Of a stretch of 32,000 nt of DNA, positions 4,489-24,518 are shown piece by piece (position 1 is the stretch's first letter; each line of letters begins with the position of its first letter). The notes under the pieces were generated by a model. It made no database searches. It saw only the letters and a list, made by a program, of their open reading frames with translations, and was not told where the DNA came from. Origin of the DNA: Mycolicibacterium smegmatis (GTDB taxonomy: Bacteria; Actinomycetota; Actinomycetes; Mycobacteriales; Mycobacteriaceae). The position numbers and the translations under genes are program-made. The DNA is taken from assembly GCF_001457595.1 (NCBI RefSeq), contig NZ_LN831039.1, positions 510,001 to 542,000 of the forward strand, given 5' to 3'.

Positions 4489-4648
4489 CGGCACGCCACT
4501 GCTGCGCGCCGGGCCCGGTTGCGACCCGCAATTCCGCTCTGCCCGGACCGGCGGCCTGCGGTACAGTACGCACCGGCATGAGACGGAACTCAAGTTCCGC
4601 CTGGGGGCGGCGGCGTGGAAAGGGGTGGGATACGCGGTGTACCGGGTG

Positions 4649-5068
4649 ATGAAGCGGTTCTGGATTCCGCTGCTACTCGTCGTGGTGGTCGCGGTGGGCG
4701 CCTACGCGATCGTGCGGATCCGGGAGGCCGCGGGCGCACACGCGCCGACGGTGGCCGAGGGGACCGCCCTGACCGAGAACTTCAACCCCAAGCACATCAC
4801 CTACGAGGTCACCGGGGCCGGAGGCTCGGCGAACCTCAACTATCTGGACGAGAACGGGCAGCCGCACCTCGTCGAGAACGCGCCGCTGCCATGGTCGTTC
4901 ACCATCGTCACGACGCTTCCGTCGATGTCGGCGAACATCATGGCCCAGGGCGACCGCAATGTCAGTGGGCTCCGTTGCCGGGTGACCGTGGACGGAGAGA
5001 TCCGCGACGACCGCGCCAGCGACGACCTCGTCGAACCGTTCATCTACTGCTTGGTGAAATCCGTATGA
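4649..5068 (+). CDS. mmpS: MmpS family membrane protein
   Basis: The track ORF 4451..5068 is trimmed to the ATG at 4649 (MKRFWIPLLLVVVVAVG, a single TM segment). An in-frame GTG at 4637 is also possible. MmpS hallmarks are present: ITYEVTG, LPWSF, AQG, C..V.VDG, and a C-terminal Cys. Its stop overlaps the mmpL start (ATGA at 5065-5068). Confidence 0.85.
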   Translation: MKRFWIPLLLVVVVAVGAYAIVRIREAAGAHAPTVAEGTALTENFNPKHITYEVTGAGGSANLNYLDENGQPHLVENAPLPWSFTIVTTLPSMSANIMAQGDRNVSGLRCRVTVDGEIRDDRASDDLVEPFIYCLVKSV

Positions 5069-7950
5069 CCAACACGCACTCGAAGTCGCAGCGGCCGTTC
5101 GTCGGTCACGTGATCCGGATCTTCTCGCTGCCCATCGTCCTGTTGTGGGTTCTGCTCGTGGTCGCCCTGGGCGCGATTTTCCCGTCGCTCGACGACGTCG
5201 CGGCCACACGTTCGGTACCGCTGAGTCCCACCGACTCGCAGGCGTATCAGTCGATGCTGAACATCGGCAAGGTCTTCCGGCAGTACGACTCGGACTCCAC
5301 GGCGATGGTCGTTCTGGAGGGCGAGGACAAACTCGGCGATGCGGCGCACAAGTACTACGACGAGATCGTCGCCAAGCTGCGGGCCGATCATGAGCACGTC
5401 CAGAACGTGCAGGACTTCTGGAGCGATCCGCTGACCGCCGCGGGATCTCAGAGCGTGGACGGCAGGTCGGCGTACGTCCAGATCTTCCTCAACGGTCCGC
5501 AGGGCACCACGGCCAGCTACGAGTCGGTTGCGGCCGTCCGCGACATCGTCGAGTCGGTACCACCTCCGCCCGGGATCAAGGCTCACGTCGCCGGCACCAC
5601 CGTGCTCAACGCCGACACCTCCGTGGCCGGGCACCAGAGCATGGCGCGGATGGAGCTCATCTCGGTGGCGGTCATCATCCTGATGCTGCTCGCCATCTAC
5701 CGGTCGATAGTGACGATGCTCATCTCGATGGTGATCATCGGACTGGAATTGTTTGCCGCACAGAGTGTCACAGCCACCGCGGGACATTTCAACCTCATCG
5801 GGCTCACCCCGTACGCGGTCAGCATGACCACCATGCTGGCGTTGGCGGCGGGGACGGACTACGTGATCTTTCTGCTCGGCCGGTACCACGAGGAGCGATC
5901 GAGAGGACTCGACCGCGAAGAGGCGTACTACGTCGCCTATCGCGGTGTCTCCCATGTGATCCTGGGCTCCGGACTGACCATCGCCGGTGCGTGTCTGTGC
6001 CTCACGATGACGACCCTGCCCTACTTCCAGTCGATGGCACTTCCGTGTGCGATCTCGATCCTGGTGATCGTCATCGCGGCCCTCACCCTGGCGCCCGCGG
6101 TGCTGACCGTCGCATCGAGGTTCGGTCTGCTCGACCCGAAGCGTGAGCTCTCGACCAAGAGCTGGCGCAAGGTCGGCACCGCCGTCGTCCGCTGGCCGAT
6201 CCCGATCATCCTGGTGACCGGCCTCGTGGCGGCCATCGGTTTCGCGAGCCTGCTGACCTATGTGCCGCAGTACAACGACCAGAAGTTCACGCCTGCCGAC
6301 ATGCCGGCCAACGTCGCCATGGCGGTCGCCGACCGGCACTTCTCCGAGGCGCGCATGAACCCCGAATTGCTGATGCTCGAAGCCGATCACGACATCCGCA
6401 ACCCCGCCGACATGCTCGTGATCGATCGTGTCGCGAAATACGTCGTCCACATGCGCGGTATCGAGCGGGTGCAGACCATCACCCGCCCACTGGGCTCACC
6501 GATCGAGCACAGCTCCATCCCGTTCCTGCTGGGAGCGCAGAACGCCGGCACCATGCAGGCCGCGAAGTTCAACAACGACAACACCGCTCAGATGCTCGAG
6601 CAGGCCGACGAGTTGAGCCGGACGATCGCCAGCATGGAGCGCATGTACGGCCTGACACAGGAGCTGACAGACACCACGCACAGCATGGTCGGGCGGACCC
6701 ACGACATGGTGGAGGCCACCAAGGAGATGCGTGACAGCCTCGCCGATTTCGACGACTTCTTCCGCCCGATGCGTAACTACCTCTACTGGGAACCGCACTG
6801 CTACGACATCCCGGTCTGCCAGTCGTTGCGGTCGGTCTTCGACACCTTGGACGGCATCGGCCAGCTCACCGATGAAATGCAAGGTCTCACAATTGATATG
6901 GACCGCATGGATGAGCTGATGCCGCAGATGCTGCCGATCCTGCGGTCGACCATCGATTCGATGAAGACGATGCGCGACTTCATGATCGCGACCCACAGCG
7001 TCATGGCCGGAACCCAGGCACAGCAGCAGGAGCTGGCCAAGAACGCCACCGAGATCGGTCTGTACTTCGATCAGGCCAAGAACGACGACTTCTTCTATCT
7101 GCCCCCGGACGTGTTCGACAACCCGGATTTCAAACGCGGGCTCGAGATGTTCGTGTCGCCGGACGGCAAGGCGGTCCGGATGATCATCACCCACCAGGGC
7201 GATCCGGCCTCGGTCGACGGTATCGCGCATGTGCGCGATCTCAGGGACGTGGTCGCCGACGCGGTCAAGGGCACGCCGCTGGCCAACGCGAAAGTGTCGT
7301 TGGCGGGTACGGCTTCGTTGTACAGCGACATGCAGGACGGCGTCGTCACCGATCTGATGATCGCGATCATCGCGTCGATGATCCTGATCTTCGGGATCAT
7401 GCTCGTCATCACGCGAAGTGTGGTCGCGGCGCTGGTGATCGTGGGCACCGTGGCCGCCTCGCTGGGCACTGCATGCGGCCTTTCGGTCCTGCTGTGGCAG
7501 GACATCCTCGGCCTGGGTGTGCAGTGGGTCGTGCTGCCGTTGTCGATCGTGATCCTGCTGGCGGTGGGCTCCGACTACAACCTGTTGCTGGTCTCCCGGT
7601 TGAAGGAGGAGATCCACGCCGGGCTCAACACCGGCATCATCCGCGGCATGGGAGCCACCGGTCGGGTGGTCACCGCGGCGGGTCTGGTGTTCGCGTTCAC
7701 GATGATGGCGATGATCGTCAGTGACCTGCGCGTGGTCGGCCAGCTCGGCACCACCATCGGTCTGGGGCTGATCGTCGACACCCTGATCGTCCGGGCATTC
7801 ATGACGCCGTCGATCGCCGCGGCCCTGGGCCGGTGGTTCTGGTGGCCGCTGAACACCTTCGAGATCACCCGGCGGGGCAGGCAGGCGCCGCACGCGCGGT
7901 CGGTCGACGGCAACACCCAGCCCTTCCCGGGGGTGACGACGGCGCCGTGA
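5065..7950 (+). CDS. mmpL: MmpL family RND-type transporter (961 aa)
   Basis: The track ORF 4615..7950 is trimmed to the ATG at 5065 (MTNTHSKSQRPF...). It has two 6-TM bundles and GTDY / GSDYNLLL motifs. A long helical insertion with two Cys (HCYDIPVC) sits in the second extracytoplasmic loop. It is translationally coupled to mmpS. Confidence 0.9.
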   Translation: MTNTHSKSQRPFVGHVIRIFSLPIVLLWVLLVVALGAIFPSLDDVAATRSVPLSPTDSQAYQSMLNIGKVFRQYDSDSTAMVVLEGEDKLGDAAHKYYDEIVAKLRADHEHVQNVQDFWSDPLTAAGSQSVDGRSAYVQIFLNGPQGTTASYESVAAVRDIVESVPPPPGIKAHVAGTTVLNADTSVAGHQSMARMELISVAVIILMLLAIYRSIVTMLISMVIIGLELFAAQSVTATAGHFNLIGLTPYAVSMTTMLALAAGTDYVIFLLGRYHEERSRGLDREEAYYVAYRGVSHVILGSGLTIAGACLCLTMTTLPYFQSMALPCAISILVIVIAALTLAPAVLTVASRFGLLDPKRELSTKSWRKVGTAVVRWPIPIILVTGLVAAIGFASLLTYVPQYNDQKFTPADMPANVAMAVADRHFSEARMNPELLMLEADHDIRNPADMLVIDRVAKYVVHMRGIERVQTITRPLGSPIEHSSIPFLLGAQNAGTMQAAKFNNDNTAQMLEQADELSRTIASMERMYGLTQELTDTTHSMVGRTHDMVEATKEMRDSLADFDDFFRPMRNYLYWEPHCYDIPVCQSLRSVFDTLDGIGQLTDEMQGLTIDMDRMDELMPQMLPILRSTIDSMKTMRDFMIATHSVMAGTQAQQQELAKNATEIGLYFDQAKNDDFFYLPPDVFDNPDFKRGLEMFVSPDGKAVRMIITHQGDPASVDGIAHVRDLRDVVADAVKGTPLANAKVSLAGTASLYSDMQDGVVTDLMIAIIASMILIFGIMLVITRSVVAALVIVGTVAASLGTACGLSVLLWQDILGLGVQWVVLPLSIVILLAVGSDYNLLLVSRLKEEIHAGLNTGIIRGMGATGRVVTAAGLVFAFTMMAMIVSDLRVVGQLGTTIGLGLIVDTLIVRAFMTPSIAAALGRWFWWPLNTFEITRRGRQAPHARSVDGNTQPFPGVTTAP

Positions 7951-8006
7951 GGCCACGGCTGGATCTGGCAAGCTGGTGACTGAACTGTCGATCGCCAGAG
8001 AGATAC

Positions 8007-8621
8007 ATGAAGGCCACCGATTCGAAGCTGAGGCAGCGCACCGACGGGCGCCTGGACCGCACACGGGATCCGGCGATCCTCGACGCCGCGTTGGCCGCAC
8101 TGGCGGAGAACGGTTACGCGGGCACCAACATGGACGACATCGCCTCGCGTGCAGGTGTCGGGAAGGCTGCCATCTACCGGCGGTGGTCGTCGAAGGCTGC
8201 GCTGATCACCGATGCGCTCGTGTACTGGAAGCCCGCGCTTCTCATCGACGACATCCCCGACACCGGCAGCCTCGAGGGTGATCTGAACGAAATCGCCGAG
8301 CGCGCGGCACGCAACGCCGACGAGCGGATCACCTACGACCTGATCCTGCGTGTCGCCGTCGAGGCCATGAATGATTCGCAACTCGCCTCGGCGCTCGACG
8401 ATCTCACCCTGTTGAGGGGCCGTCGGACGATGACGGCGATCCTGAAGAACGCGACCGCGCGCGGCGAGATCGCCCCCGACACGGACTGGTCACTGGTCCC
8501 GGACGTGCTGACCGCGATGCTGCTGATGCGTGCGATCCGCGGTGAACGGGTGGACGCGAACTACGTCCGGAAGGTCATCGACACCGTCATCGTTCCCGCG
8601 GTGCGCGCAACCGCCTATTGA
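8007..8621 (+). CDS. TetR/AcrR family transcriptional regulator
   Basis: The N-terminal HTH signature is AALAALAENGYAGTNMDDIASRAGVGKAAIYRRWSSKAAL. The gene lies 56 nt downstream of mmpL on the same strand. Confidence 0.9.
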   Translation: MKATDSKLRQRTDGRLDRTRDPAILDAALAALAENGYAGTNMDDIASRAGVGKAAIYRRWSSKAALITDALVYWKPALLIDDIPDTGSLEGDLNEIAERAARNADERITYDLILRVAVEAMNDSQLASALDDLTLLRGRRTMTAILKNATARGEIAPDTDWSLVPDVLTAMLLMRAIRGERVDANYVRKVIDTVIVPAVRATAY

Positions 8622-15505: not shown

Positions 15506-16309
15506 TCAGGGTGTGTCTTCACCTGATCCGTCGTCCACGCCGTCGCTGTCATCGGCAGGCGGCGCGTCGCCGGTATCGGGGGCGTCGCCGGTAGGCGGGT
15601 CGACAGCATCGGGTTGATCTCCGGCGCCGTGGTTGGGATTGGTGCAGATGGTGCCCTCGCAGGGCGAGTATCCGTTGCTGCCGTCGGGGTTCCTGATGGC
15701 GTCGGGCGCGACGAAAGTGCCCGCAGGGCACGCCGGATCCTGGTTCTTGGCGCAGTACTCGTGGGTCAGGTTGTTGCCGGTCGATCCGTCGGCACCGGCC
15801 GGGCCGCCGTTGATGGGCCGGCCGTCGGGGCCCCACGTCCCGACAGGGTCGGCGGCGCCGTGGTTCGGGTTGGTGCAGATGGTGCCCTCGCAGACCACGT
15901 ACGTGGGTGATCCGTCCGGGTTCCGGATGGCGTTCGGGCCGACGTAGCTGCCGACCGGGCAGGCCGGATCCTCATTGCGGGCGCAGTATTCCTGGGTCAG
16001 GTTGTTGCCGGTCGATCCGTCCGCGCCGACCGGACCGCCGTTCACGGGTGCCCCGTTGGCGTCCCAGTGACCGCCTCCCGATTTCACCGCGACGAATGGT
16101 CCGACGTAACTGCCCGCAGGACACTTCGAATCCCGGTTGTGCGCACAGAACTGTGTGTCCGGTGCCGGCGCGGCGCTCGACTGTGCGACCGCCGACGACG
16201 TGGCCGACGGGGATTCTTCGGCCGCAGGCCCCGATTGGGATCCGCAACCTCCCACAAGCAGGGCGAAAACCGCCGCAAGCAGCACGAACATCCTGGATCG
16301 CAACGTCAT
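15506..16309 (-). CDS. Secreted Cys-rich tandem-repeat lipoprotein with an acidic C-terminal tail; function unknown
   Basis: Signal peptide with lipobox LLVGGC and GGGGAGAG upstream of the ATG. Repeated modules are (Y/F)CA.N.D..CP.G.(Y/F)V.P, CEGTICTNPNHGA and NGGP.GADGSTGNNLT. There are 10 Cys after the lipobox Cys. The tail is DAPDTGDAPPADDSDGVDDGSGED. Confidence 0.7.
   Translation of the reverse strand: MTLRSRMFVLLAAVFALLVGGCGSQSGPAAEESPSATSSAVAQSSAAPAPDTQFCAHNRDSKCPAGSYVGPFVAVKSGGGHWDANGAPVNGGPVGADGSTGNNLTQEYCARNEDPACPVGSYVGPNAIRNPDGSPTYVVCEGTICTNPNHGAADPVGTWGPDGRPINGGPAGADGSTGNNLTHEYCAKNQDPACPAGTFVAPDAIRNPDGSNGYSPCEGTICTNPNHGAGDQPDAVDPPTGDAPDTGDAPPADDSDGVDDGSGEDTP
15617..16153 (-). repeat. 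In-frame tandem repeat with a 231-bp (77-aa) period inside the lipoprotein gene
   Basis: Identical 29-mers occur at 15762-15790 and 15993-16021. Identical 22-mers occur at 15641-15662 and 15872-15893. Both pairs are offset by exactly 231 bp. A shorter degenerate first unit lies at the 5' end of the gene. Confidence 0.85.
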
Positions 16310-16670: not shown

Positions 16671-16700
16671 TTGACCGTAGTTCTGGCAAATGTTTACGAT
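16671..16700 (+). promoter_or_regulatory. Candidate SigA-type promoter: TTGACC, 18-nt spacer, TACGAT
   Basis: The -35-like hexamer is at 16671-16676 and the -10-like TAnnnT hexamer at 16695-16700. It is oriented toward the LuxR-type regulator gene and would leave a 5' UTR of about 170 nt. This is a motif match only. Confidence 0.3.
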
Positions 16701-16878
16701 TCCTGCGGACCTCAGAGAGGGCCACTCGCGTGTTACAGGGGGGAACTGCGTTGAAGCGTGGATATGGGCCATCGTTGCTGGTCGGGGTTGCGAGCCGCCG
16801 ATGCCGTGGAGCCGGTCGCGGATTCGAGATCAACACTGCACTGGCACGACAAGGTTGCCGACGTTGACACAGGTGGAC

Positions 16879-17691
16879 ATGGGCAACGTCTCTTACGCTG
16901 CGACGCCGTCCGAACGGGAATCGGTGTGTGGACACACTGCTCTGTACCGTCGCCGATCGGCGCCAGGGGCCCGGACGTCATTCTCGTGCCAGGATGACCT
17001 GCGCGTTGTCCCAGATGACGGAGTCGGTCTGCTGCGGGACACGAGAATCCTCGTCGTCGACGACTCCACGCTGTACCGGGACTACCTCGCCGCGGCGCTC
17101 GCGGCGCATGGTGCGGTCGCTCCCGGCGTCGCCTGGGACGGGCCGTCCCTGCTCGCCTCGTTCGATGCCACCATGCCGCGCGTCATCCTGCTCAACATGG
17201 CCACTCGCGACAGCGCGACACTGCTGAAACAGGCCTTGGCGCTCGGACCGCACACGCGCGTCGTGGTCATCGGGATCGCAGAAGACGACGAAAGCGCGAT
17301 AGTCGCATGCGCGGAAGCCGGTGTGGCCGGCTACCACTCTCGTTCCGAGTCGCTCGACGAGCTCCTCGAACTGATCCACAAGGTAGCTGTGGGCGAGACG
17401 CTGTGTTCGCCGAAGGTTTCAGCAATCCTTCTCAGAAGGCTGTCGACACTGGCCGCCCAACGAGAGCCGGCACCGACAGAACTGGTTCTCACGCGTCGGG
17501 AGATCGAAATCCTGCGCATGCTCGAAGCCGGGCGCACGAACCGTGAGATCGCCGAGCAGCTCTGCATCGCCGTCCACACCGTGAAGAGCCACGTGCACAA
17601 TCTGCTGGCCAAGCTGGGCGTCAGCACGCGCGCGCAGGCGGCCGCGTTGTCCCGCACCATGCGGTACACCGCGGACCCACAAGAGGACTAG
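16879..17691 (+). CDS. LuxR/NarL-family regulator with an atypical (pseudo-)receiver domain
   Basis: The receiver fold reads RILVVDDS ... RVILLNMATRD ... VVVIGIA ... GVAGYHSRS, followed by the LuxR HTH LTRREIEILRMLEAGRTNREIAEQLCIAVHTVKSHVHNLLAKLGV. The phospho-acceptor position is Asn (AAC at 17194-17196). The start is uncertain: ATG 16879 or GTG 16924. The track start at 16690 lies in non-coding-looking DNA. Confidence 0.8.
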   Translation: MGNVSYAATPSERESVCGHTALYRRRSAPGARTSFSCQDDLRVVPDDGVGLLRDTRILVVDDSTLYRDYLAAALAAHGAVAPGVAWDGPSLLASFDATMPRVILLNMATRDSATLLKQALALGPHTRVVVIGIAEDDESAIVACAEAGVAGYHSRSESLDELLELIHKVAVGETLCSPKVSAILLRRLSTLAAQREPAPTELVLTRREIEILRMLEAGRTNREIAEQLCIAVHTVKSHVHNLLAKLGVSTRAQAAALSRTMRYTADPQED

Positions 17692-17856
17692 TCCGCGATC
17701 TAGACCGGTCCGGTCCCCGAAATCGATCCCCAATTCACTCTGATGGCCGATGTGCCAACAGCTTTCGGTGGCTGATAGTGAAGAGGTGTTCATGGGGGTA
17801 GCTGAGCGCCAGGTCGCTCGATCGCTGGAAACAGATCCGAATGAAGGATGTCGCTG

Positions 17857-19644
17857 ATGTGCGGGATCATCGCATGCCGCACGAACCGGCCAGCCGCGGA
17901 CTATCTCCGCGTCGGCCTGCGCAGGCTGGAGTACCGGGGTTACGACTCGGTGGGGGTTGCACTACAGACGGAGGCCGGCACCGTGGCCCGGTTGCGGACG
18001 ACCTCGCGTATCAGTGCACTGGAGTCGCTGCTCGACGAGTGGTCGGGACCGACCTTCGACGGAGTGGGCATCGGCCATACGCGGTGGGCAACACACGGCG
18101 CGGTCACGGAGACCAATGCGCACCCACACAGTGACTGCGGTGGTCGGCTCAGCCTGGTGCACAACGGGATCATCGAGAACGCAACGCAGTTGCGCACCGA
18201 GTTGAGCGCCGCCGGTCACAGGTTCACCTCGACCGTCGACAGCGAAGTGCTGTGCCATCTCATCGAAGACGAGCGGTCGAACGGCGCGGACCTGACCTGC
18301 GCAGTGCAGAACGCACTGGCGAAGGCGAGGGGCTCGTGGGCGCTGGCCGTTCTTGAACACGGCACCGGACGCATCGCCGTCGCGGCATCGGGTTCTCCTC
18401 TCGTCGTGGCGAACACGTCCCACGGTGACTTCGCGACGAGTGACGTCGCGGCCATCGCGGATTGGGCCGACGAGTTCCGTGTCCTCGAAGACGGTGATGT
18501 CGTGGAACTTTCCGTCGACGGCCGGTGGACCAGGGCGGGAATCCTCTCGGCGCCGCCGCCTGCGACACGGTGCACGCTGCGCACCCGTGACGTGGAACTC
18601 GACGGTTACACCGACTTCATGGCCAAAGAGATCGACGAACAACCCGAAGCGGTCGCGAGGGTCCTCGATTCGATGGCAGGCCGGATCGCCACCGGCGCTC
18701 TGTGGCGCGACTTCGGCCTGCCGTCTTTCGAACGGCTCCGTGTGATCGGCTGTGGGACTTCGCTCAACGCTGGCACCGTGATCGGCAACCTCGCGCGTGA
18801 CCTGGGCGGGATTCCGATGGCCACGACGGTGGCGAGTGAAGCGGCCATGGAGGTTTTCGATGCGGGACAGCTGTGGCTGGCCATCAGCCAGTCGGGCGAG
18901 ACCGCGGACGTACTGCGCGCGGTGGAGTCACCGGCGGTGAGCGAATCGTCACTGGTGGCGCTCACCAACAGCGGACACTCGACACTGGCACGCCTGGCCG
19001 ACGCGGTCGTGGGATGTGCGGCCGGCCCCGAAATCGGTGTGGCCGCCACGAAAACATTCGTCTGCCAGGTTGTTTCGGGGAGTGCGCTGATGATCTCCGC
19101 GCTCGTCGCGATGCGGCGGATCTCCGCGGCATCGGCCTCCCGGCTGGTCGACGATCTTCGGCGTCTGCCGGAGCAGCTCGATGCCGCGACCGTGACCGCC
19201 AAGAGCGTCGTACCGCCGATCGCCGAGGAACTCGCCACGGCAGGAGGATTCCTGTTCATCGCTCGCGGACTGGGCCTGCCGTATGCATCCGAAGGTGCGC
19301 TCAAACTCAAGGAACTCACCTACCGGTGGGTCGAGCACTACCCGGCCGGCGAACTGAAACACGGTCCGCTCGCGCTGGTCGGCAACGGAACTCCGGTGAT
19401 CGTCGTCAGCACAGGTGATCCGAAGATCGAAAGCAGCATCGCCGAGATACAGGCCCGCGGCGGACACGTCATCTCGATCGGCTCGGCGGGAAGCACGGTC
19501 GCAGTCACCGACGGGCCGAACGCGCCATGGGGTCCGATCACGGCCACCGTCGCCCTGCAGATCCTTGCACGGACCATGGCTCTGACGTTGGGCCGGGACG
19601 TCGACAAACCACGCAATCTCGCGAAGTCGGTGACGGTGGAATGA
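17857..19644 (+). CDS. glmS: Glutamine--fructose-6-phosphate aminotransferase (isomerising), operon-embedded copy
   Basis: The start is trimmed to give an MCGI N-terminus with the catalytic Cys at position 2. RLEYRGYDSVGVA and GHTRWATHG are present, followed by two SIS domains. The canonical C-terminus LAKSVTVE is present. Confidence 0.9.
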   Translation: MCGIIACRTNRPAADYLRVGLRRLEYRGYDSVGVALQTEAGTVARLRTTSRISALESLLDEWSGPTFDGVGIGHTRWATHGAVTETNAHPHSDCGGRLSLVHNGIIENATQLRTELSAAGHRFTSTVDSEVLCHLIEDERSNGADLTCAVQNALAKARGSWALAVLEHGTGRIAVAASGSPLVVANTSHGDFATSDVAAIADWADEFRVLEDGDVVELSVDGRWTRAGILSAPPPATRCTLRTRDVELDGYTDFMAKEIDEQPEAVARVLDSMAGRIATGALWRDFGLPSFERLRVIGCGTSLNAGTVIGNLARDLGGIPMATTVASEAAMEVFDAGQLWLAISQSGETADVLRAVESPAVSESSLVALTNSGHSTLARLADAVVGCAAGPEIGVAATKTFVCQVVSGSALMISALVAMRRISAASASRLVDDLRRLPEQLDAATVTAKSVVPPIAEELATAGGFLFIARGLGLPYASEGALKLKELTYRWVEHYPAGELKHGPLALVGNGTPVIVVSTGDPKIESSIAEIQARGGHVISIGSAGSTVAVTDGPNAPWGPITATVALQILARTMALTLGRDVDKPRNLAKSVTVE

Positions 19645-20942
19645 AAACCCGAACATCCGGAACATTCGCGGACTCTCAGCAGGAAAACGGGGAAGGAAGA
19701 CTGTTGATCACACTGCAACGCACGACGATTGCCGTCGTGGGACTCGGTTATGTGGGACTGCCCACCGCGCTGGCGTTCGCGGAGATGGGAGCAGAGATCA
19801 TCGGCTGTGACCTCAGCGAGGACCGGCTGGCGAACATCAAGACCGGAGACGTCGACATGCTGCCCCGGGACCGGACACGGCTTCTCCGACAGCTCGATTC
19901 GTTCAAGCTGACCACCGAGCCCAGTGCGATCGGAGTGGCCGACGCGGTCGTGGTGTGCGTCCCGACCCCGGTCGACCCGCATCAGTCCCCGGATCTGCGG
20001 GCGCTGACCGCAGCATGCGCCAACGTGGTGCGGTACGCGACGAAGGGACAACTCCTCGTTCTCACCTCGACGACATACGTGGGGTGCACACACGAGATGC
20101 TCGTCGAACCACTGCAAGCTGCGGGGTTCACGGTCGGCAAGGACATTTTCGTCGCGTTCAGTCCCGAACGCATCGATCCGGGAGTGAAGGATCACGCGCC
20201 GGAGCGGACGCCTCGCGTCGTCGGTGGTGTCACCCCGGCGTGCACGGCCCGCGCCGCAGCCCTGCTGAGGCATACCGCGAGTTCCGTGCACACCGTCTCT
20301 TCTCCCGAGTCCGCGGAGATGACCAAGTTGGTCGAGAACTCGTTCCGTGCGGTCAACATCGCTCTGGCCAACGAGTTCTCGGAAGTAGCCCGCGAACTGA
20401 GCGTCGACGTCATGGAGGTCATCGACGCGGCGGCGACCAAACCGTACGGGTTCATGCCGTTCTATCCGGGCCCGGGCGTCGGCGGCCACTGCATACCGTG
20501 CGATCCGCACTATCTCCTGTGGCAGTTGCGGGCCCGCCGATTCGACTCGCCCCTGATGCGGACAGCGATGACATGCATCGCCGCACGCCCACGCGACGTC
20601 GTGTCGCGGGCCCGGGAGATGCTGGCCGAGCGAGGGAAGCCCACGCAGGGCGCGCGTGTCCTGGTGGTCGGTGTCACGTACAAGCCGGGTGTCGCCGATC
20701 TGCGTGAGTCACCGGCACTGGCGATCATCGACGATCTCACCGCTGCCGGAGCCGTCGTCTCGTTCACCGACCCGCTGGTGCCCATGCTGCGGACGCCACG
20801 GGCCGGAACGCTCACCAATCACCGCTCGCCGGAACACGATGAGTGGGACCTGGTGCTGGTGCACCATTGGGCAGAAGAGCTCAGGGACTGGGTGTCGGCC
20901 CAGCCTGTGGTGCTCGACACCACATTCGGTCGGCGAGGCTGA
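19641..20942 (+). CDS. Nucleotide-sugar dehydrogenase of the WbpA/WbpO/WecC/TviB (UDP-N-acetylhexosamine) branch
   Basis: The ATG overlaps the glmS stop (ATGA at 19641-19644). Motifs are VVGLGYVGLPTA, VPTPV, FSPERIDPG, AEMTKLVENSFRAVNIALANE and AAATKPYGFMPFYPGPGVGGHCIPCDPHYL. The Ugd-type motifs (PEFLREG, GFGGSC.PKD) are absent. Confidence 0.85.
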   Translation: MKTRTSGTFADSQQENGEGRLLITLQRTTIAVVGLGYVGLPTALAFAEMGAEIIGCDLSEDRLANIKTGDVDMLPRDRTRLLRQLDSFKLTTEPSAIGVADAVVVCVPTPVDPHQSPDLRALTAACANVVRYATKGQLLVLTSTTYVGCTHEMLVEPLQAAGFTVGKDIFVAFSPERIDPGVKDHAPERTPRVVGGVTPACTARAAALLRHTASSVHTVSSPESAEMTKLVENSFRAVNIALANEFSEVARELSVDVMEVIDAAATKPYGFMPFYPGPGVGGHCIPCDPHYLLWQLRARRFDSPLMRTAMTCIAARPRDVVSRAREMLAERGKPTQGARVLVVGVTYKPGVADLRESPALAIIDDLTAAGAVVSFTDPLVPMLRTPRAGTLTNHRSPEHDEWDLVLVHHWAEELRDWVSAQPVVLDTTFGRRG

Positions 20943-20944
20943 AC

Positions 20945-22240
20945 GTGGCGACCATAGCGGCGGCAGATCGCACCATCGCCTCGGTGCGGCCGGCAGAGTT
21001 CGGCGTCAAGGTCGTGATCGTCATGACTTTGCTGCTCATCGTGATGCTCATATTCGGGTACAAGGTCGTGAGCCTTCAGAACATGAAGGACGAACCCTTC
21101 TGGGCGGCATACGGACTGGTCATCACCGCGTTCATCTTCACCAGGTTCGGTCTGGCCGCACTGTACCGTCCCCCGCGTCGCGATACCGAGAACTACTGGC
21201 CCGTCGTGGCCATCATCGTTCCCGCGTACAACGAACCCGACATCGCCAGGACACTCCTGCACTGCCTCGGTGTCGACTACCCGCGAGAACTGTTGCGTGT
21301 GGTCGTGGTCGACGACAAGAGCAGTGACGACACCCTGCGGCGGATCACTGATTTTGCCGCAGAGCACCCGAACCTGACGGTGATACCGCATGAAGTCAAC
21401 GGTGGAAAACGCCGGGCGATGGCCACAGGTATGGCAGCCGCTGACGACGCCGATCTGTTCGTCTTCATCGACAGCGACAGCCAGGTGACGCGTGACGCGA
21501 TACGAGTCATCGCATCGTATTTCGCTGACAGCTCGGTCGGCGCGGTGTGCGGGCATACCGACGACACCAACCTGTCCCACAACATCCTGACCCGCATGCA
21601 GGCGATGCAGTACTACATCGCCTTTCGCATCTACAAGTCGGCAGAGGCGTTGTTCGGATCGGTGACCTGCTGCTCGGGTTGCTTCTCGGCATATCGCGCC
21701 GATGCGGTACGGCCCGTGGCCGACAAGTGGTTGAACCAGACATTTCTCGGCCGCCCTTCGACTTTCGGTGACGACCGCAGCCTGACCAACTACCTGTTGC
21801 GGGACTGGCGCGTGCTGTACGCCCCCGACGCGCAGGCCTATACCAATGTGCCCGAACACCTCAAGCAGTTCTTGCGTCAGCAGTTGCGCTGGAAGAAGAG
21901 TTGGCTTCGGGAGGCGCCGCGGGCGATGTGTGCCGTGCGACGCAAGAACCCGGTCATGGTGGTGATGTTCGCTCTGAGCATCGTGCTGCCGTTCATCGCG
22001 CCTCAGGTGGTCATGAGGGCATTCGTCGTCCAACCGCATTTCATAAGTCAACTGCCGTTCTGGTACTTCGGCGGTGTCGCTGCGATCGCCGTCATCTACG
22101 GGCTGTTCTATCGGCTGCACCGACCTGTGAAGCGTTGGTACCAGGGCATTTTCTTCACGATGTTCTACACGATCATCCTTGTGCTGCAGATGCCGTACGC
22201 CATGGTGACGATCCGCGACAGCAAATGGGGGACGCGATGA
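20945..22240 (+). CDS. Processive family-2 glycosyltransferase, class-I hyaluronan-synthase (HasA)/NodC-like polysaccharide synthase
   Basis: The GTG start lies 2 nt after the upstream stop. There are 2 N-terminal and at least 3 C-terminal TM segments. Motifs are VPAYNE, VVVDDKSSD, FIDSDS (DxD), GDDRSLTNY (from 21767) and QQLRWKKSWLRE (from 21878). Confidence 0.85.
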   Translation: MATIAAADRTIASVRPAEFGVKVVIVMTLLLIVMLIFGYKVVSLQNMKDEPFWAAYGLVITAFIFTRFGLAALYRPPRRDTENYWPVVAIIVPAYNEPDIARTLLHCLGVDYPRELLRVVVVDDKSSDDTLRRITDFAAEHPNLTVIPHEVNGGKRRAMATGMAAADDADLFVFIDSDSQVTRDAIRVIASYFADSSVGAVCGHTDDTNLSHNILTRMQAMQYYIAFRIYKSAEALFGSVTCCSGCFSAYRADAVRPVADKWLNQTFLGRPSTFGDDRSLTNYLLRDWRVLYAPDAQAYTNVPEHLKQFLRQQLRWKKSWLREAPRAMCAVRRKNPVMVVMFALSIVLPFIAPQVVMRAFVVQPHFISQLPFWYFGGVAAIAVIYGLFYRLHRPVKRWYQGIFFTMFYTIILVLQMPYAMVTIRDSKWGTR

Positions 22241-23772
22241 GGCACCGTCGGCAACGTAAGAGCTACTCGATGGCGCTCACGGCGGTCTCGGCCAGCCTGG
22301 TCGCGGCGTACCTGGCCGCACCCAGTTACTGGCAGTGGCACCGAGCCGAGGAACGGCAGCAGCGTCTTGAGATCGTCCAGGTCGACACACCGTCGGGCGC
22401 GGTCGATCGACGGTTGGTGCATGAACTGCGCGATGCCACGGTGAGTTCGCAGAGCGCCCCGATCATCATCACCTACCACGACATCGGCTACAACGAATCG
22501 CCCTACACCGTGACGCCGGAGCGGTTCGCCACACAGATGCAACTGATCCACGACGCAGGCTGGACGACGCTGACGATCGACCAACTCGACGGATGGCTGG
22601 ACGGTGATCCGTTACCTCCGCACAGCGTGCTGGTCACCTTCGATGATGGAGCGAAAGGTGTGTGGCGGTATGCGGATCCGGTGCTCGCGCGGTTGGGGAT
22701 GCATGCCGCCGTGTTCCTCATCACCGGGTTCGTCGGAACCCACCAGCCCTACTACATGACGTGGGACGAGATCGGCCAACTGCACTCCAGCGGGCGGTGG
22801 GATCTACAGGTGCACACCCATCTGGGCCATGTCGAGGTGCCGGTCGATGCGGCGGGCAACCAGGCCCCGTTCCTCACCAGCCTGCAGTGGCTCGCCGACC
22901 ATGGCAGGAAAGAGACGCAGCAGGAGTACCACCGGCGGGTGCTGCAGGATCTCTCGGAATGCAAGCGACAGTTCCGCGCACACGGATTGCCCGAGCCGAG
23001 CTACTTCGCCTATCCGTTCTCTGCCCACGAGGGGGAATCCGAGGAAACCGAGCCACTGCAGGAGATCGTGACGTCGCTGTACCGCATGGCGCTGCTCGAT
23101 GATGCACTGGAGATCAGGACGAGCTCCAGCAGCGATGTGCAGGCCGGGATGATCCAGCGCATGGACATCGTCGCTGCCACCAGCACCGATCTGCTCGTCG
23201 ACAAGCTGGAGCAGGCCAGCCCGATCGACCCGAAGGCGTCGCGTCCGTTCGCTGACCCGACCGGGTGGGTCGACGGCACCAACAACCCGGCACCGGTCGA
23301 CCTCGATGCCGACACCCTGCAGATCAACCCCGACCCAGGCGAAGAGGTGATCCGGACCTACGCGCCGATTCGCAGCACGATGTGGACCGACTACACCATC
23401 GAAGTCGACGTGAGCGGTTTCGCTCCGGACGACTGGACGACGGCCGGCGTCACCGTGCTCAAGCCCAGCCGGGCGCCTTTCGACGGCAACGTCTCACAAC
23501 AGGTCGATGTGCGGATTCGCGGGAACTCGTTCGGTATCGGCCGCAGTTCGAAGGAGTTCGCAGATCACCCTCTCCTGCAGGGGAATTCGCACCACGTCGT
23601 CATCGATGTCACGGCGCAGCGGGTCACCGTCAGCGTCGACGGTGACATACCCCAGGTGATTGAACTGGACAGCAACCGGTCCCGCGGTGTCGGAGGCGGG
23701 GTGTCGTTCTGGGCGTACCGGCAGTCCGAGGCCAGCCCGCCGATCGTGTTCTCGAACCTCACGATTCGCTAG
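22237..23772 (+). CDS. Membrane-anchored polysaccharide deacetylase (NodB homology) fused to a C-terminal ConA/LamG-like (DUF1080-like) domain
   Basis: The ATG overlaps the GT2 stop (ATGA at 22237-22240). An N-terminal TM anchor is present. NodB motifs are TFDDG (22636-22650) and HTHLGH. About 130 C-terminal residues (roughly 23380-23769) have a beta-sandwich-like pattern ending GGGVSFWAY....IVFSNLTIR. Confidence 0.75.
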   Translation: MRHRRQRKSYSMALTAVSASLVAAYLAAPSYWQWHRAEERQQRLEIVQVDTPSGAVDRRLVHELRDATVSSQSAPIIITYHDIGYNESPYTVTPERFATQMQLIHDAGWTTLTIDQLDGWLDGDPLPPHSVLVTFDDGAKGVWRYADPVLARLGMHAAVFLITGFVGTHQPYYMTWDEIGQLHSSGRWDLQVHTHLGHVEVPVDAAGNQAPFLTSLQWLADHGRKETQQEYHRRVLQDLSECKRQFRAHGLPEPSYFAYPFSAHEGESEETEPLQEIVTSLYRMALLDDALEIRTSSSSDVQAGMIQRMDIVAATSTDLLVDKLEQASPIDPKASRPFADPTGWVDGTNNPAPVDLDADTLQINPDPGEEVIRTYAPIRSTMWTDYTIEVDVSGFAPDDWTTAGVTVLKPSRAPFDGNVSQQVDVRIRGNSFGIGRSSKEFADHPLLQGNSHHVVIDVTAQRVTVSVDGDIPQVIELDSNRSRGVGGGVSFWAYRQSEASPPIVFSNLTIR

Positions 23773-23781
23773 GGGCTGCAG

Positions 23782-24483
23782 ATGAAACGACTCATCGCCC
23801 TGGGCGCGCTCTGTTGCGCGGCGTGTGGTCACTCGGGTGCGCAGGGGTTGGGCCTCTCCGACGATTTCACCGGTCCCAATGGTGTGATCGCGGCCGAGGG
23901 TACGCCGGTGCAACCAGGTGACAAGTGGATCGTCACCAGCGGAACCTTGTTCCGGGACAACGGCACTGCGTGGACGGGTCCGCCGGACGAGTCCACGGGT
24001 TCGGAGGTCTTCCGGATGGTTTCGGTGGTCCGCGGGTTCAACGACCTGCAGATGTCGTTGGCGATGCGCGTCGACGCCATGTCGACGACGGCACGAACGC
24101 CTGCGCAGGACTACGACGGTGCACACATCTGGGTGCGCTACCAGTCCGATGTCGCGCTCTACGCCGTGAGTGTCGACCGACGCGATGCCACCATGACCAT
24201 CAAGAAGAAGTGCGCGGGCGGGACCGACAACGGCGGGACGTACTACGACCTGAACGGTTTCGTGCATGACGTACCCATTCCGTTCGGAAAATGGCAGCAC
24301 ATCGCGGTGACCGTCCGCGATCACCCAGATGGCTCGGTGTACATCGACGCCACGCGTGACGGGATCACGATGAGCGCGGTCGACGACGGTGTCGGCTGTG
24401 CACCGTTGCACGGCGGTGGTGTCGGGATCCGTGGCGACAACGCCGAACTCCGTTTCGCAGACATCTCGGTGACGTCGCTGTAG
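23782..24483 (+). CDS. Lipoprotein with a ConA/LamG-like (DUF1080-like) domain
   Basis: Signal peptide with Cys (LGALCCAACG). The body reads WQHIAVTVRD..DGSVYIDATRDG ... GGGVGIRGDNAELRFADISV. This parallels the C-terminal domain of the preceding protein. The gene starts 9 nt after that protein's stop. Confidence 0.65.
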   Translation: MKRLIALGALCCAACGHSGAQGLGLSDDFTGPNGVIAAEGTPVQPGDKWIVTSGTLFRDNGTAWTGPPDESTGSEVFRMVSVVRGFNDLQMSLAMRVDAMSTTARTPAQDYDGAHIWVRYQSDVALYAVSVDRRDATMTIKKKCAGGTDNGGTYYDLNGFVHDVPIPFGKWQHIAVTVRDHPDGSVYIDATRDGITMSAVDDGVGCAPLHGGGVGIRGDNAELRFADISVTSL

Positions 24484-24518
24484 AGAAGCGCACAGCCGCA
24501 TGTCTCTGCCTGGTAGGG

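Follow-up and report, generated by a model that had tools for sequence, protein, structure and literature searches.

A five-gene cluster of Mycolicibacterium smegmatis predicted to direct synthase-dependent production of a GlcNAc-based extracellular polysaccharide

We analysed a 32-kb stretch of the Mycolicibacterium smegmatis genome (hereafter the window; positions 510,001 to 542,000 of contig NZ_LN831039.1), in which five open reading frames (ORFs) on the + strand fill positions 17857-24483. Judged from the genes and from structural models, this presumed operon probably encodes a synthase-dependent pathway for an extracellular glycan based on N-acetylglucosamine (GlcNAc) and resembling chitin or hyaluronan. 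A previous sequence-only reading of the window had proposed five same-strand genes with these boundaries, and re-reading the ORFs from the sequence returned the same five, with the last stop codon at 24481-24483. Their reading frames are backed by third-position GC, and a Shine-Dalgarno-like purine run lies ahead of each of the five starts. The domain assignments made earlier for the five proteins also held, as seen in profile searches and, for the folds resembling concanavalin A (ConA), with AlphaFold2 and Foldseek. The five genes, with product lengths in amino acids (aa), are as follows.

17857..19644, + strand: GlmS, glutamine--fructose-6-phosphate transaminase, 595 aa (TIGR01135, GATase_6, SIS)

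19641 (or 19704)..20942, + strand: nucleotide-sugar 6-dehydrogenase, COG0677/WecC/WbpA-like, 433 or 412 aa (TIGR03026)

20945..22240, + strand: membrane-embedded processive GT2 synthase, 431 aa (Pfam, motifs, hydropathy)

22237 (or 22270)..23772, + strand: membrane-anchored CE4 de-N-acetylase with a C-terminal ConA/CBM66-like beta-sandwich, 511 or 500 aa (PF01522, AlphaFold2)

23782..24483, + strand: ConA-like (DUF1080-like) lipoprotein, termed P233, 233 aa, MSMEG_0479 (AlphaFold2, Foldseek, lipobox)

In strain mc2 155 the operon corresponds approximately to MSMEG_0475-0479, MSMEG_0479 being the last gene, and UniProt lists the GT2 as A0QPQ1 under the name 'Chitin synthase'.

The synthase matched the Pfam families Glyco_tranf_2_3, Glycos_transf_2 and Chitin_synth_2, and its hydropathy profile contains five hydrophobic helices, two near the N-terminus and three near the C-terminus. 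The motifs DSD (residues 176-178), GDDRSLTN (275-282), QQxRWKKSW (312-320) and the C-terminal WGTR (428-431) are invariant across 16 diverse homologues. Residues 151-431 align with residues 174-458 of the Chlorella-virus hyaluronan synthase (HAS), CvHAS, at 112 bits and up to the WGTR; CvHAS, whose structure is known, is the best PDB match. This motif set and the multi-pass topology are not diagnostic of a HAS, because both are common to NodC and chitin synthases. Sequence identity is 30.7-32% to the HasA of plasmid pXO1 (152 bits), 27-32% to NodC (120-154 bits), 28% to CvHAS and 22-23% to PgaC (65-76 bits over partial length). The label 'HasA-like' in the sequence-only reading is no better than 'NodC-like', given 30.7% identity to HasA and 27-32% to NodC. 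Among curated equivalogs the NodC model TIGR04242 scored best, with 197 bits where the cut-off is 550, and the PgaC/IcaA model TIGR03937 gave 118 bits against 422; the protein falls below every NCBIfam equivalog cut-off. In a bootstrapped neighbour-joining tree, HasA, two NodC proteins, a Lactococcus has-like glycosyltransferase and CvHAS formed a group (84%) with the M. smegmatis GT2 outside it; within its own family the protein fell into a subclade of Actinomycetes (75%). PgaC was a long outgroup branch, and the branching order between the GT2 family and the HasA/NodC/CvHAS group was unsupported. From these comparisons the synthase appears to belong to the NodC/HAS/chitin-synthase branch. 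By the tree and the scores below cut-off, it does not sit within a characterised clade whose loci have the same composition, a placement that the sequence-only reading had named as one that would speak against it. A GT2 homologue in Rhodococcus spp. (P0044, 664 aa; locus L011, 7491-9245) has an N-terminal extension with a GATase_7 match of 22 bits, below the cut-off; this weak GlmS-N-like match may be the remnant of a GlmS-synthase fusion.

Two genes upstream of the synthase are predicted to supply its precursors. The first encodes a complete GlmS: it scored 538 bits against TIGR01135 (cut-off 418), contains GATase_6 and two SIS domains in Pfam, starts with MCGII, which holds the obligatory N-terminal catalytic Cys, and ends in LAKSVTVE, with the KSVTVE tail. 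The second product has all three UDPG_MGDP_dh Pfam domains and scored 372 bits against TIGR03026 (cut-off 190). Of the models for enzymes acting on UDP-N-acetylhexosamines, WecC gave 222 bits (cut-off 459) and TviB 167 bits (cut-off 592), neither reaching its cut-off, and the models for UDP-glucose (UDP-Glc) dehydrogenases gave 44-138 bits. A search of the PDB ranked Cap5O (185 bits) and a Pyrococcus dehydrogenase forming the uronic acid of UDP-N-acetylmannosamine (UDP-ManNAc; 179 bits) above UDP-Glc dehydrogenases (106 bits at most), and identity to Escherichia coli WecC is 36%. These scores suggest an enzyme closer to those acting on UDP-N-acetylhexosamines than to UDP-Glc dehydrogenases. 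Because a tblastn search of the window and of 82 related loci with E. coli WecB found no WecB-type UDP-GlcNAc 2-epimerase, UDP-GlcNAc would be the parsimonious substrate.

Downstream of the synthase, the deacetylase matched PF01522 (Polysacc_deac_1) at 59 bits (cut-off 23); it scored 108 bits against the PgaB model TIGR03938, short of the cut-off of 322, and its homologues are named PgaB by JGI. In the AlphaFold2 model (mean predicted local distance difference test, pLDDT, 91) a helix spanning residues 2-43, which includes the membrane anchor behind a basic stretch, is followed by the CE4 domain and by a beta-sandwich at about residues 350-511. Foldseek matched the CE4 domain to PgaB-N, BpsB and IcaB with template-modelling (TM) scores on the target of 0.74-0.79, and the C-terminal domain to CBM66 or lectins. 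The catalytic set H81, D136, D137, H193 and H198 is invariant in 40 homologues. Since a PgaB/IcaB-like fold is here joined to an N-terminal membrane helix, the enzyme is predicted to act outside the membrane. The lipoprotein P233 is modelled as an all-beta jelly roll (pLDDT 92), and its Cys15 is conserved across the family behind an (L/V)-A-(A/G)-C lipobox. In Pfam its sole match was Laminin_G_3 at 18.6 bits (cut-off 27.6); PF06439 was not matched, and a few homologues have precomputed PF06439 matches. For both proteins the ConA-like fold was too weak to be seen by sequence and was recognised from the models (pLDDT 91-92). With a probability of 1.0, Foldseek matched P233 to PL28 ulvan lyase, CBM66, lectins, GH16 and DUF1080 (3hbk), as well as to PL7 and PL20, with alginate and glucuronan lyases among the matches. 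This spread over lyases, carbohydrate-binding modules, lectins and GH16 allows no assignment of function from structure, and P233 as modelled would either bind or cleave the polymer. Duplication as the origin of the two ConA-like folds was considered and rejected, the deacetylase C-terminus and P233 having no detectable sequence similarity (BLASTP E = 0.72).

How the polymer would leave the cytoplasm was judged from the rest of the window and from related loci. As the sequence-only reading had noted, domain scans of the 32-kb window and a WecA query without match revealed no Wzx/Wzy proteins, ABC exporter or priming transferase there, and no WecA-type priming enzyme lies near any related locus. 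A Wzx/Wzy- or ABC-dependent pathway was rejected given the absence of such genes, and of a WecA-like priming enzyme, from the window. What the window contains instead, a membrane GT2 with a co-encoded and predicted extracytoplasmic modifying enzyme, is the gene complement of a synthase-dependent system.

We then compared the locus with its relatives. The GT2 family is present in at least 565 species-representative genomes from many phyla, and locus comparison covered the best 80 loci (39-77% GT2 identity), with neighbours counted by targeted tblastn within 8 kb around the GT2 and with loci having enough flank as denominators. These 80 loci span Mycobacteriales, Pseudonocardiales, Arthrobacter, Acidimicrobiia, Thermoleophilia and many Patescibacteria, together with Methylococcales, Acidobacteriota, Nitrospinaceae and even Woesearchaeota bins. 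In 41 of 73 loci the gene immediately 5' of the GT2, on its strand, was a dehydrogenase homologue, and in 51 of 74 the gene immediately 3' encoded a CE4 deacetylase. The identity of the dehydrogenase tracked that of the GT2, being 55-69% in close relatives, ~50% in Solirubrobacterales and ~36% in Patescibacteria; because the two fall in step, the comparison suggests that dehydrogenase and GT2 are inherited as a unit. It is this recurrence of the dehydrogenase-GT2-deacetylase order in distant phyla, and not the packing in one genome, that makes the arrangement more than chance, and the M. smegmatis operon appears to be one case of a conserved module that spans phyla. The outer genes are more restricted: about eight unrelated loci from several lineages have a glmS gene no more than 8 kb from the GT2, and a P233-type lipoprotein gene beside the deacetylase was found in Actinomycetota only, where it is sometimes duplicated.

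The relatives also carry accessory genes. A GH18 protein with the catalytic D-x-E is encoded in ~30 loci, as DGxDxDYE in diderms and as DGxNxDFE in Actinomycetota, and partners with an intact catalytic motif suggest a chitin-like backbone; the specificity of GH18 enzymes argues for beta-1,4-linked GlcNAc in it. In Holophaga foetida DSM 6591 (locus L081, 6322-16160) the module consists of a dehydrogenase, a PilZ::GT2 fusion, a CE4 protein, a 1395-aa TPR::CE4 protein and a GH18 protein, and the pairing of TPR-CE4 with GH18 recurs in other diderms (L047, L056 and L073). An 897-kb megaplasmid of Paenibacillus cellulositrophicus (NZ_CP045296; L088, 4538-12168) encodes, in order, CE4, dehydrogenase, PilZ::GT2, CE4 and GH18. 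Synthase-dependent systems, those for cellulose, alginate, PNAG (poly-beta-1,6-GlcNAc) and Pel, are known for such accessories: a synthase with a PilZ domain, which binds cyclic di-GMP (c-di-GMP), a scaffold protein with TPRs, and a glycoside hydrolase dedicated to the system. The occurrence of all three among the relatives therefore supports the synthase-dependent reading independently, as the window by itself could not. At the M. smegmatis locus neither a c-di-GMP receptor nor a TPR/porin export scaffold was present.

Several of these loci had features of their own. An IS66 transposase lies immediately upstream of the Holophaga foetida module, and the Paenibacillus dehydrogenase (6073-7122 of L088) is missing from the PLSDB gene table. 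A scan of IMG/VR for a link to chloroviruses returned one contig, IMGVR_UViG_3300019888_000005 (L087, 4712-10377), and no chlorovirus contig. The contig carries dehydrogenase, GT2 and deacetylase genes of actinobacterial type, followed by two tandem P233 genes, and, although filed as viral, looks more like actinobacterial chromosomal DNA than like a phage gene set.

Taken in order, the genes suggest the following pathway. The extra GlmS would raise the level of glucosamine-6-phosphate and hence the supply of UDP-GlcNAc, part of which the dehydrogenase would oxidise to the UDP-activated uronic acid (UDP-GlcNAcA). The GT2 would polymerise GlcNAc, probably with GlcNAcA, at the cytoplasmic face of the membrane and pass the chain through its own transmembrane channel, the likeliest linkages being beta-1,4 or alternating beta. 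Outside the membrane, the anchored CE4 enzyme would strip some of the N-acetyl groups, its ConA-like domain holding the chain. The ConA-like lipoprotein would bind or trim the polymer, a task that GH18 appears to take in other lineages. What we infer in this scheme is the co-transcription of the five genes, the substrates, the linkage and length of the chain, its content of uronic acid and what the lipoprotein does. The presence of a uronic acid in the polymer, which is the chemically novel part, stands at about even odds.

A number of points weigh against the scheme. No dehydrogenase was found within 8 kb in 24 related loci, about a third, and no column of the GT2 alignment set the loci that have a dehydrogenase apart from those that lack it at a 70%/70% threshold; for both reasons the incorporation of GlcNAcA is not secured. 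The same column search, intended as a specificity signature, neither supports nor excludes the use of GlcNAcA. The dehydrogenase scores slightly higher with enzymes of the UDP-ManNAc type (WecC 222 bits, Cap5O 185) than with TviB (167), and the structural matches of P233 are generic, with TM scores of 0.4-0.57. Neither a PilZ domain nor another obvious regulatory domain was seen in the M. smegmatis GT2. Passage of the polymer across or into the mycobacterial outer layers is unexplained by the gene set. Finally, one of the two overlapping starts proposed for the operon, the dehydrogenase ATG at 19641, is doubtful (see below).

The loci without a nearby dehydrogenase, together with the missing GT2 signature, make a plain chitin- or chitosan-like product the strongest rival to the scheme. 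Here the GT2 would make a GlcNAc homopolymer that the CE4 enzyme deacetylates, and the product of the dehydrogenase would feed another glycan or would serve in only some lineages. Such a product would suit the 24 loci that encode a GT2, a CE4 protein and often a GH18 protein with no dehydrogenase within 8 kb, as well as the position of NodC as the best-scoring equivalog for the GT2. It would also suit the GH18 partners themselves, as GH18 enzymes require an N-acetyl group at subsite -1 and typically act on chitin. Nevertheless, the dehydrogenase is immediately upstream on the same strand in more than half of the scorable loci, among them those of Actinomycetota, Patescibacteria, Bacillota and Acidobacteriota, and its divergence follows that of the GT2. 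Adjacency conserved to this degree would be hard to explain if the two did not share a product, and genomes without a nearby dehydrogenase may encode one elsewhere. We consider the homopolymer unlikely, while regarding it as the alternative most deserving of attention.

A more ambitious extension of the proposed pathway treats the whole group of loci, in Actinomycetota, Patescibacteria, Bacillota, Acidobacteriota, Methylococcales and others, as a previously unrecognised synthase-dependent family with three core enzymes: a 6-dehydrogenase for UDP-GlcNAc, a synthase resembling NodC and HAS, and a deacetylase resembling PgaB. The product of this family would be an acidic or zwitterionic, partly de-N-acetylated GlcNAc/GlcNAcA analogue of chitin, under c-di-GMP control through PilZ in some lineages and trimmed by GH18 or ConA-like proteins. 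The UNGD-CHS8-CDA1 cluster of fungi and chloroviruses, discussed below, would then have its bacterial counterpart in this family and would possibly derive from it. We advance this extended reading tentatively, as a whole that has somewhat more against it than for it.

Coming back to the M. smegmatis locus, the four junctions all read as had been claimed: an ATGA overlap of glmS end and first-read dehydrogenase start at 19641-19644; the dehydrogenase stop TGA (20940-20942), two bases 'ac' (20943-20944) and the GT2 start GTG (20945); a second ATGA, the overlap of GT2 and deacetylase, at 22237-22240; and the deacetylase stop TAG (23770-23772), a 9-nucleotide (nt) gap and the lipoprotein ATG (23782). 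The exception lies in the use of the first ATGA, which may not be a real start. Gene callers for public assemblies begin the dehydrogenase at TTG 19704 (412 aa), behind a good Shine-Dalgarno sequence, GGAAGGAAG, so that a 59-nt gap replaces the overlap. The N-terminus showed no conservation in an alignment of the upstream region from nine related loci, and because it is not conserved among homologues we left the start as either ATG 19641 or TTG 19704. Annotations also differ for the deacetylase, which is called from 22237 (511 aa) or 22270 (500 aa); the start at 22237 has the better Shine-Dalgarno sequence and retains the basic stretch before the membrane anchor. Whichever starts are used, all gaps within the operon are 59 nt or less. 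The description 'tightly packed' thus holds for all five genes, whereas 'translationally coupled' is certain for only some of the junctions.

The flanks of the operon contain the following features.

16690..17691, + strand: LuxR/GerE response regulator (GerE 65 bits; Response_reg 32.5 bits, cut-off 30.2)

17692..17856, + strand: intergenic region of 165 nt, presumed promoter and 5' untranslated region, read from sequence

24484..24492, no strand: right border of the module, where identity among M. smegmatis strains ends 9 nt past the last stop codon

No sigma-70-like site was detected in 17692-17856, and promoter and terminator predictions (7 found) were not above the expectation from shuffled sequence (3.8 +/- 2.2). 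Only a weak hairpin was seen 3' of the last operon gene. Rfam scans, which include the glmS ribozyme, and tRNA scans found nothing. The LuxR regulator, whose start is uncertain (270-333 aa across annotations), has an apparent Asn at the position expected for the phospho-acceptor Asp (..VILLNMATRD..) and may act independently of phosphorylation. It was not found beside the cluster in other genera and is possibly a local regulator of the operon, outside the conserved module.

The remaining neighbours in the window are regulators, an esterase, small-molecule transporters (LysE, EamA and MFS) and catabolic enzymes. Over 21 kb the window matches GCA_029222015.1 with 100% identity, and the GT2 protein has an exact counterpart among the NCBI entries for M. 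smegmatis. Three further M. smegmatis strain loci (L003-L005) align with it up to 24492 and then continue with other genes (DUF1361 and diol-dehydratase), which replace the block of GntR, FAD-oxidoreductase, IlvD-like and MFS genes that follows in the window. The GC content of the cluster is 0.61-0.66, compared with ~0.68 in the upstream flank at 12-16 kb. Separately, the genes for an MmpL-family transporter of 1111 aa and, after it, a TetR regulator occupy 4615-8621, ~10 kb upstream of the operon with unrelated genes in between, and no link between this pair and the operon was found. A predicted 267-aa lipoprotein encoded on the - strand (15506-16309) has an LLVGGC lipobox and no Pfam match; it contains two Cys-rich tandem repeats of ~77 aa with the pattern EYCA[RK]N[EQ]DPACP...GTICTNPNHGA, and the corresponding DNA repeats (15622-15811 and 15853-16042) are 82% identical.

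To our knowledge, few synthase-dependent bacterial polymers are understood, namely cellulose, PNAG, alginate, Pel, hyaluronan, curdlan and mixed-linkage glucan. If the proposed pathway is right, the GT2 family, encoded in at least 565 species-level genomes, would add a matrix or capsule polymer whose precursor logic is distinct. This breadth is unexpected; it takes in uncultured Patescibacteria and methanotrophs as well as a model mycobacterium amenable to genetics. Such a polymer, as an acidic chitin/chitosan analogue, would also have potential as a biomaterial. Which polysaccharide contributes to the mycobacterial biofilm matrix is still debated, and the operon (~MSMEG_0475-0479) offers a concrete, deletable candidate for it.

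In comparison with known systems, the operon appears to encode a synthase-dependent polysaccharide system and not a new kind of machine, with a gene logic for which no characterised match was found. The absence of a characterised counterpart, as proposed in the sequence-only reading, agrees with the unreached equivalog cut-offs and with the position of the GT2 outside the HasA/NodC/CvHAS group. No mention of MSMEG_0474-0479 was found in the literature searched (subscription journals not covered), nor was any account of this system or of a PilZ/NodC-like, GH18-associated synthase system.

The has operons (hasA-hasB-hasC in Streptococcus and hasACB on pXO1/pBCXO1 in Bacillus) likewise combine a small multi-pass class-I-type GT2 with a dehydrogenase and a supply gene, have no separate exporter, and share the D/DxD/GDDR/QxxRW/WGTR motifs. 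Genuine hyaluronan (alternating glucuronic acid and GlcNAc) made by an equivalent of hasA-hasB-hasC would account for this synthase-dehydrogenase pairing, and homologues of the GT2 are auto-annotated 'hyaluronan synthase' by JGI, in keeping with the 30.7% identity to pXO1 HasA and with CvHAS as the best PDB match. However, HasA identity is only ~31-32%, and HasA, NodC and CvHAS cluster apart from the GT2 family (84% bootstrap). The dehydrogenase is of the N-acetylhexosamine type (185-222 bits for the UDP-ManNAc/GlcNAc type, compared with at most 106-138 for the UDP-Glc type), whereas that of the has operons is Ugd/HasB. The supply gene is glmS here and galU/hasC there, and the deacetylase, the GH18 partners and the ConA-like lipoprotein have no place in has loci. 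We regard hyaluronan as a very improbable product.

The pgaABCD and icaADBC systems, which make PNAG, are also synthase-dependent and pair a GT2 with a PgaB/IcaB-type CE4 enzyme outside the membrane, and the TPR protein of the diderm relatives is analogous to PgaA. A PNAG system at the M. smegmatis locus would fit the deacetylase, whose closest structures are PgaB-N, BpsB and IcaB and whose homologues bear the name PgaB, and the GT2 does match the PgaC_IcaA model. That match (118 bits) is nevertheless far under its cut-off of 422 and under the NodC score of 197, and the GT2, with 22-23% identity to PgaC, lies on the NodC/HAS branch while PgaC is a long outgroup branch. There is no PgaD or IcaD; the hydrolase partner is GH18 or ConA-like in place of the GH153/GH13-like C-terminal domain of PgaB; and both the dehydrogenase, which is foreign to PNAG systems, and glmS are additional here. 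These differences leave PNAG with very little in its favour.

The rhizobial nodABC genes resemble the operon in their GlcNAc-based pairing of a GT2 with a CE4 enzyme, and short Nod-factor-like chito-oligosaccharide signals in place of a polymer would be in line with NodC as the best curated family, with the roughly NodC-like size of the GT2 and with a related GT2-CE4 pair in a Frankia symbiont (L016); but we find this hardly credible, as identity to NodC is 28-32% in this comparison and the score of 197 bits is far under the cut-off of 550, the window contains no NodA acyltransferase or NodIJ exporter, both of which flank nodBC on the rhizobial plasmids examined, NodB is small and cytoplasmic whereas the CE4 enzyme here is PgaB-like, anchored, predicted to be extracytoplasmic and equipped with a carbohydrate-binding-like domain, and relatives of the M. 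smegmatis module have PilZ, TPR and GH18 partners of the kind usual in systems that secrete polymers.

Two eukaryotic or viral gene sets also resemble the proposed pathway of GlmS, dehydrogenase, synthase and deacetylase. According to work by Landstein and colleagues in 1998, the hyaluronan genes of the chlorovirus PBCV-1 reportedly comprise a HAS (A98R), a glutamine--fructose-6-phosphate amidotransferase (GFAT; A100R) and a UDP-Glc dehydrogenase (A609L). Like the operon, this set would drive polymer output with an amidotransferase of the GlmS type, a dehydrogenase for sugar nucleotides and a synthase of class I; it would differ from the operon in being viral, in not forming one operon, in using a UDP-Glc dehydrogenase and in having no deacetylase. 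The closest described analogue, likened by description and not by sequence, is the cluster of some fungi and chloroviruses in which UNGD, a UDP-GlcNAc 6-dehydrogenase, is joined by the chitin/hyaluronan-synthase-like CHS8 (class CV) and the deacetylase CDA1, a conserved group with an uncharacterised product (PMC4059230, PMC5122149, PMC7053769). The sequence-only reading named neither this cluster nor the spread of the module across phyla. The three-enzyme logic of UDP-GlcNAc 6-dehydrogenase, GT2 and CE4 is the same in both, whereas the cluster belongs to eukaryotes and giant viruses, and CvHAS, the one chlorovirus synthase compared, is only 28% identical to the GT2. If the likeness holds, the M. 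smegmatis operon would provide a bacterial model for the CHS8-UNGD-CDA1 cluster, which in fungi is linked to virulence and mycoparasitism, and could help to explain the cluster in fungi and viruses alike.

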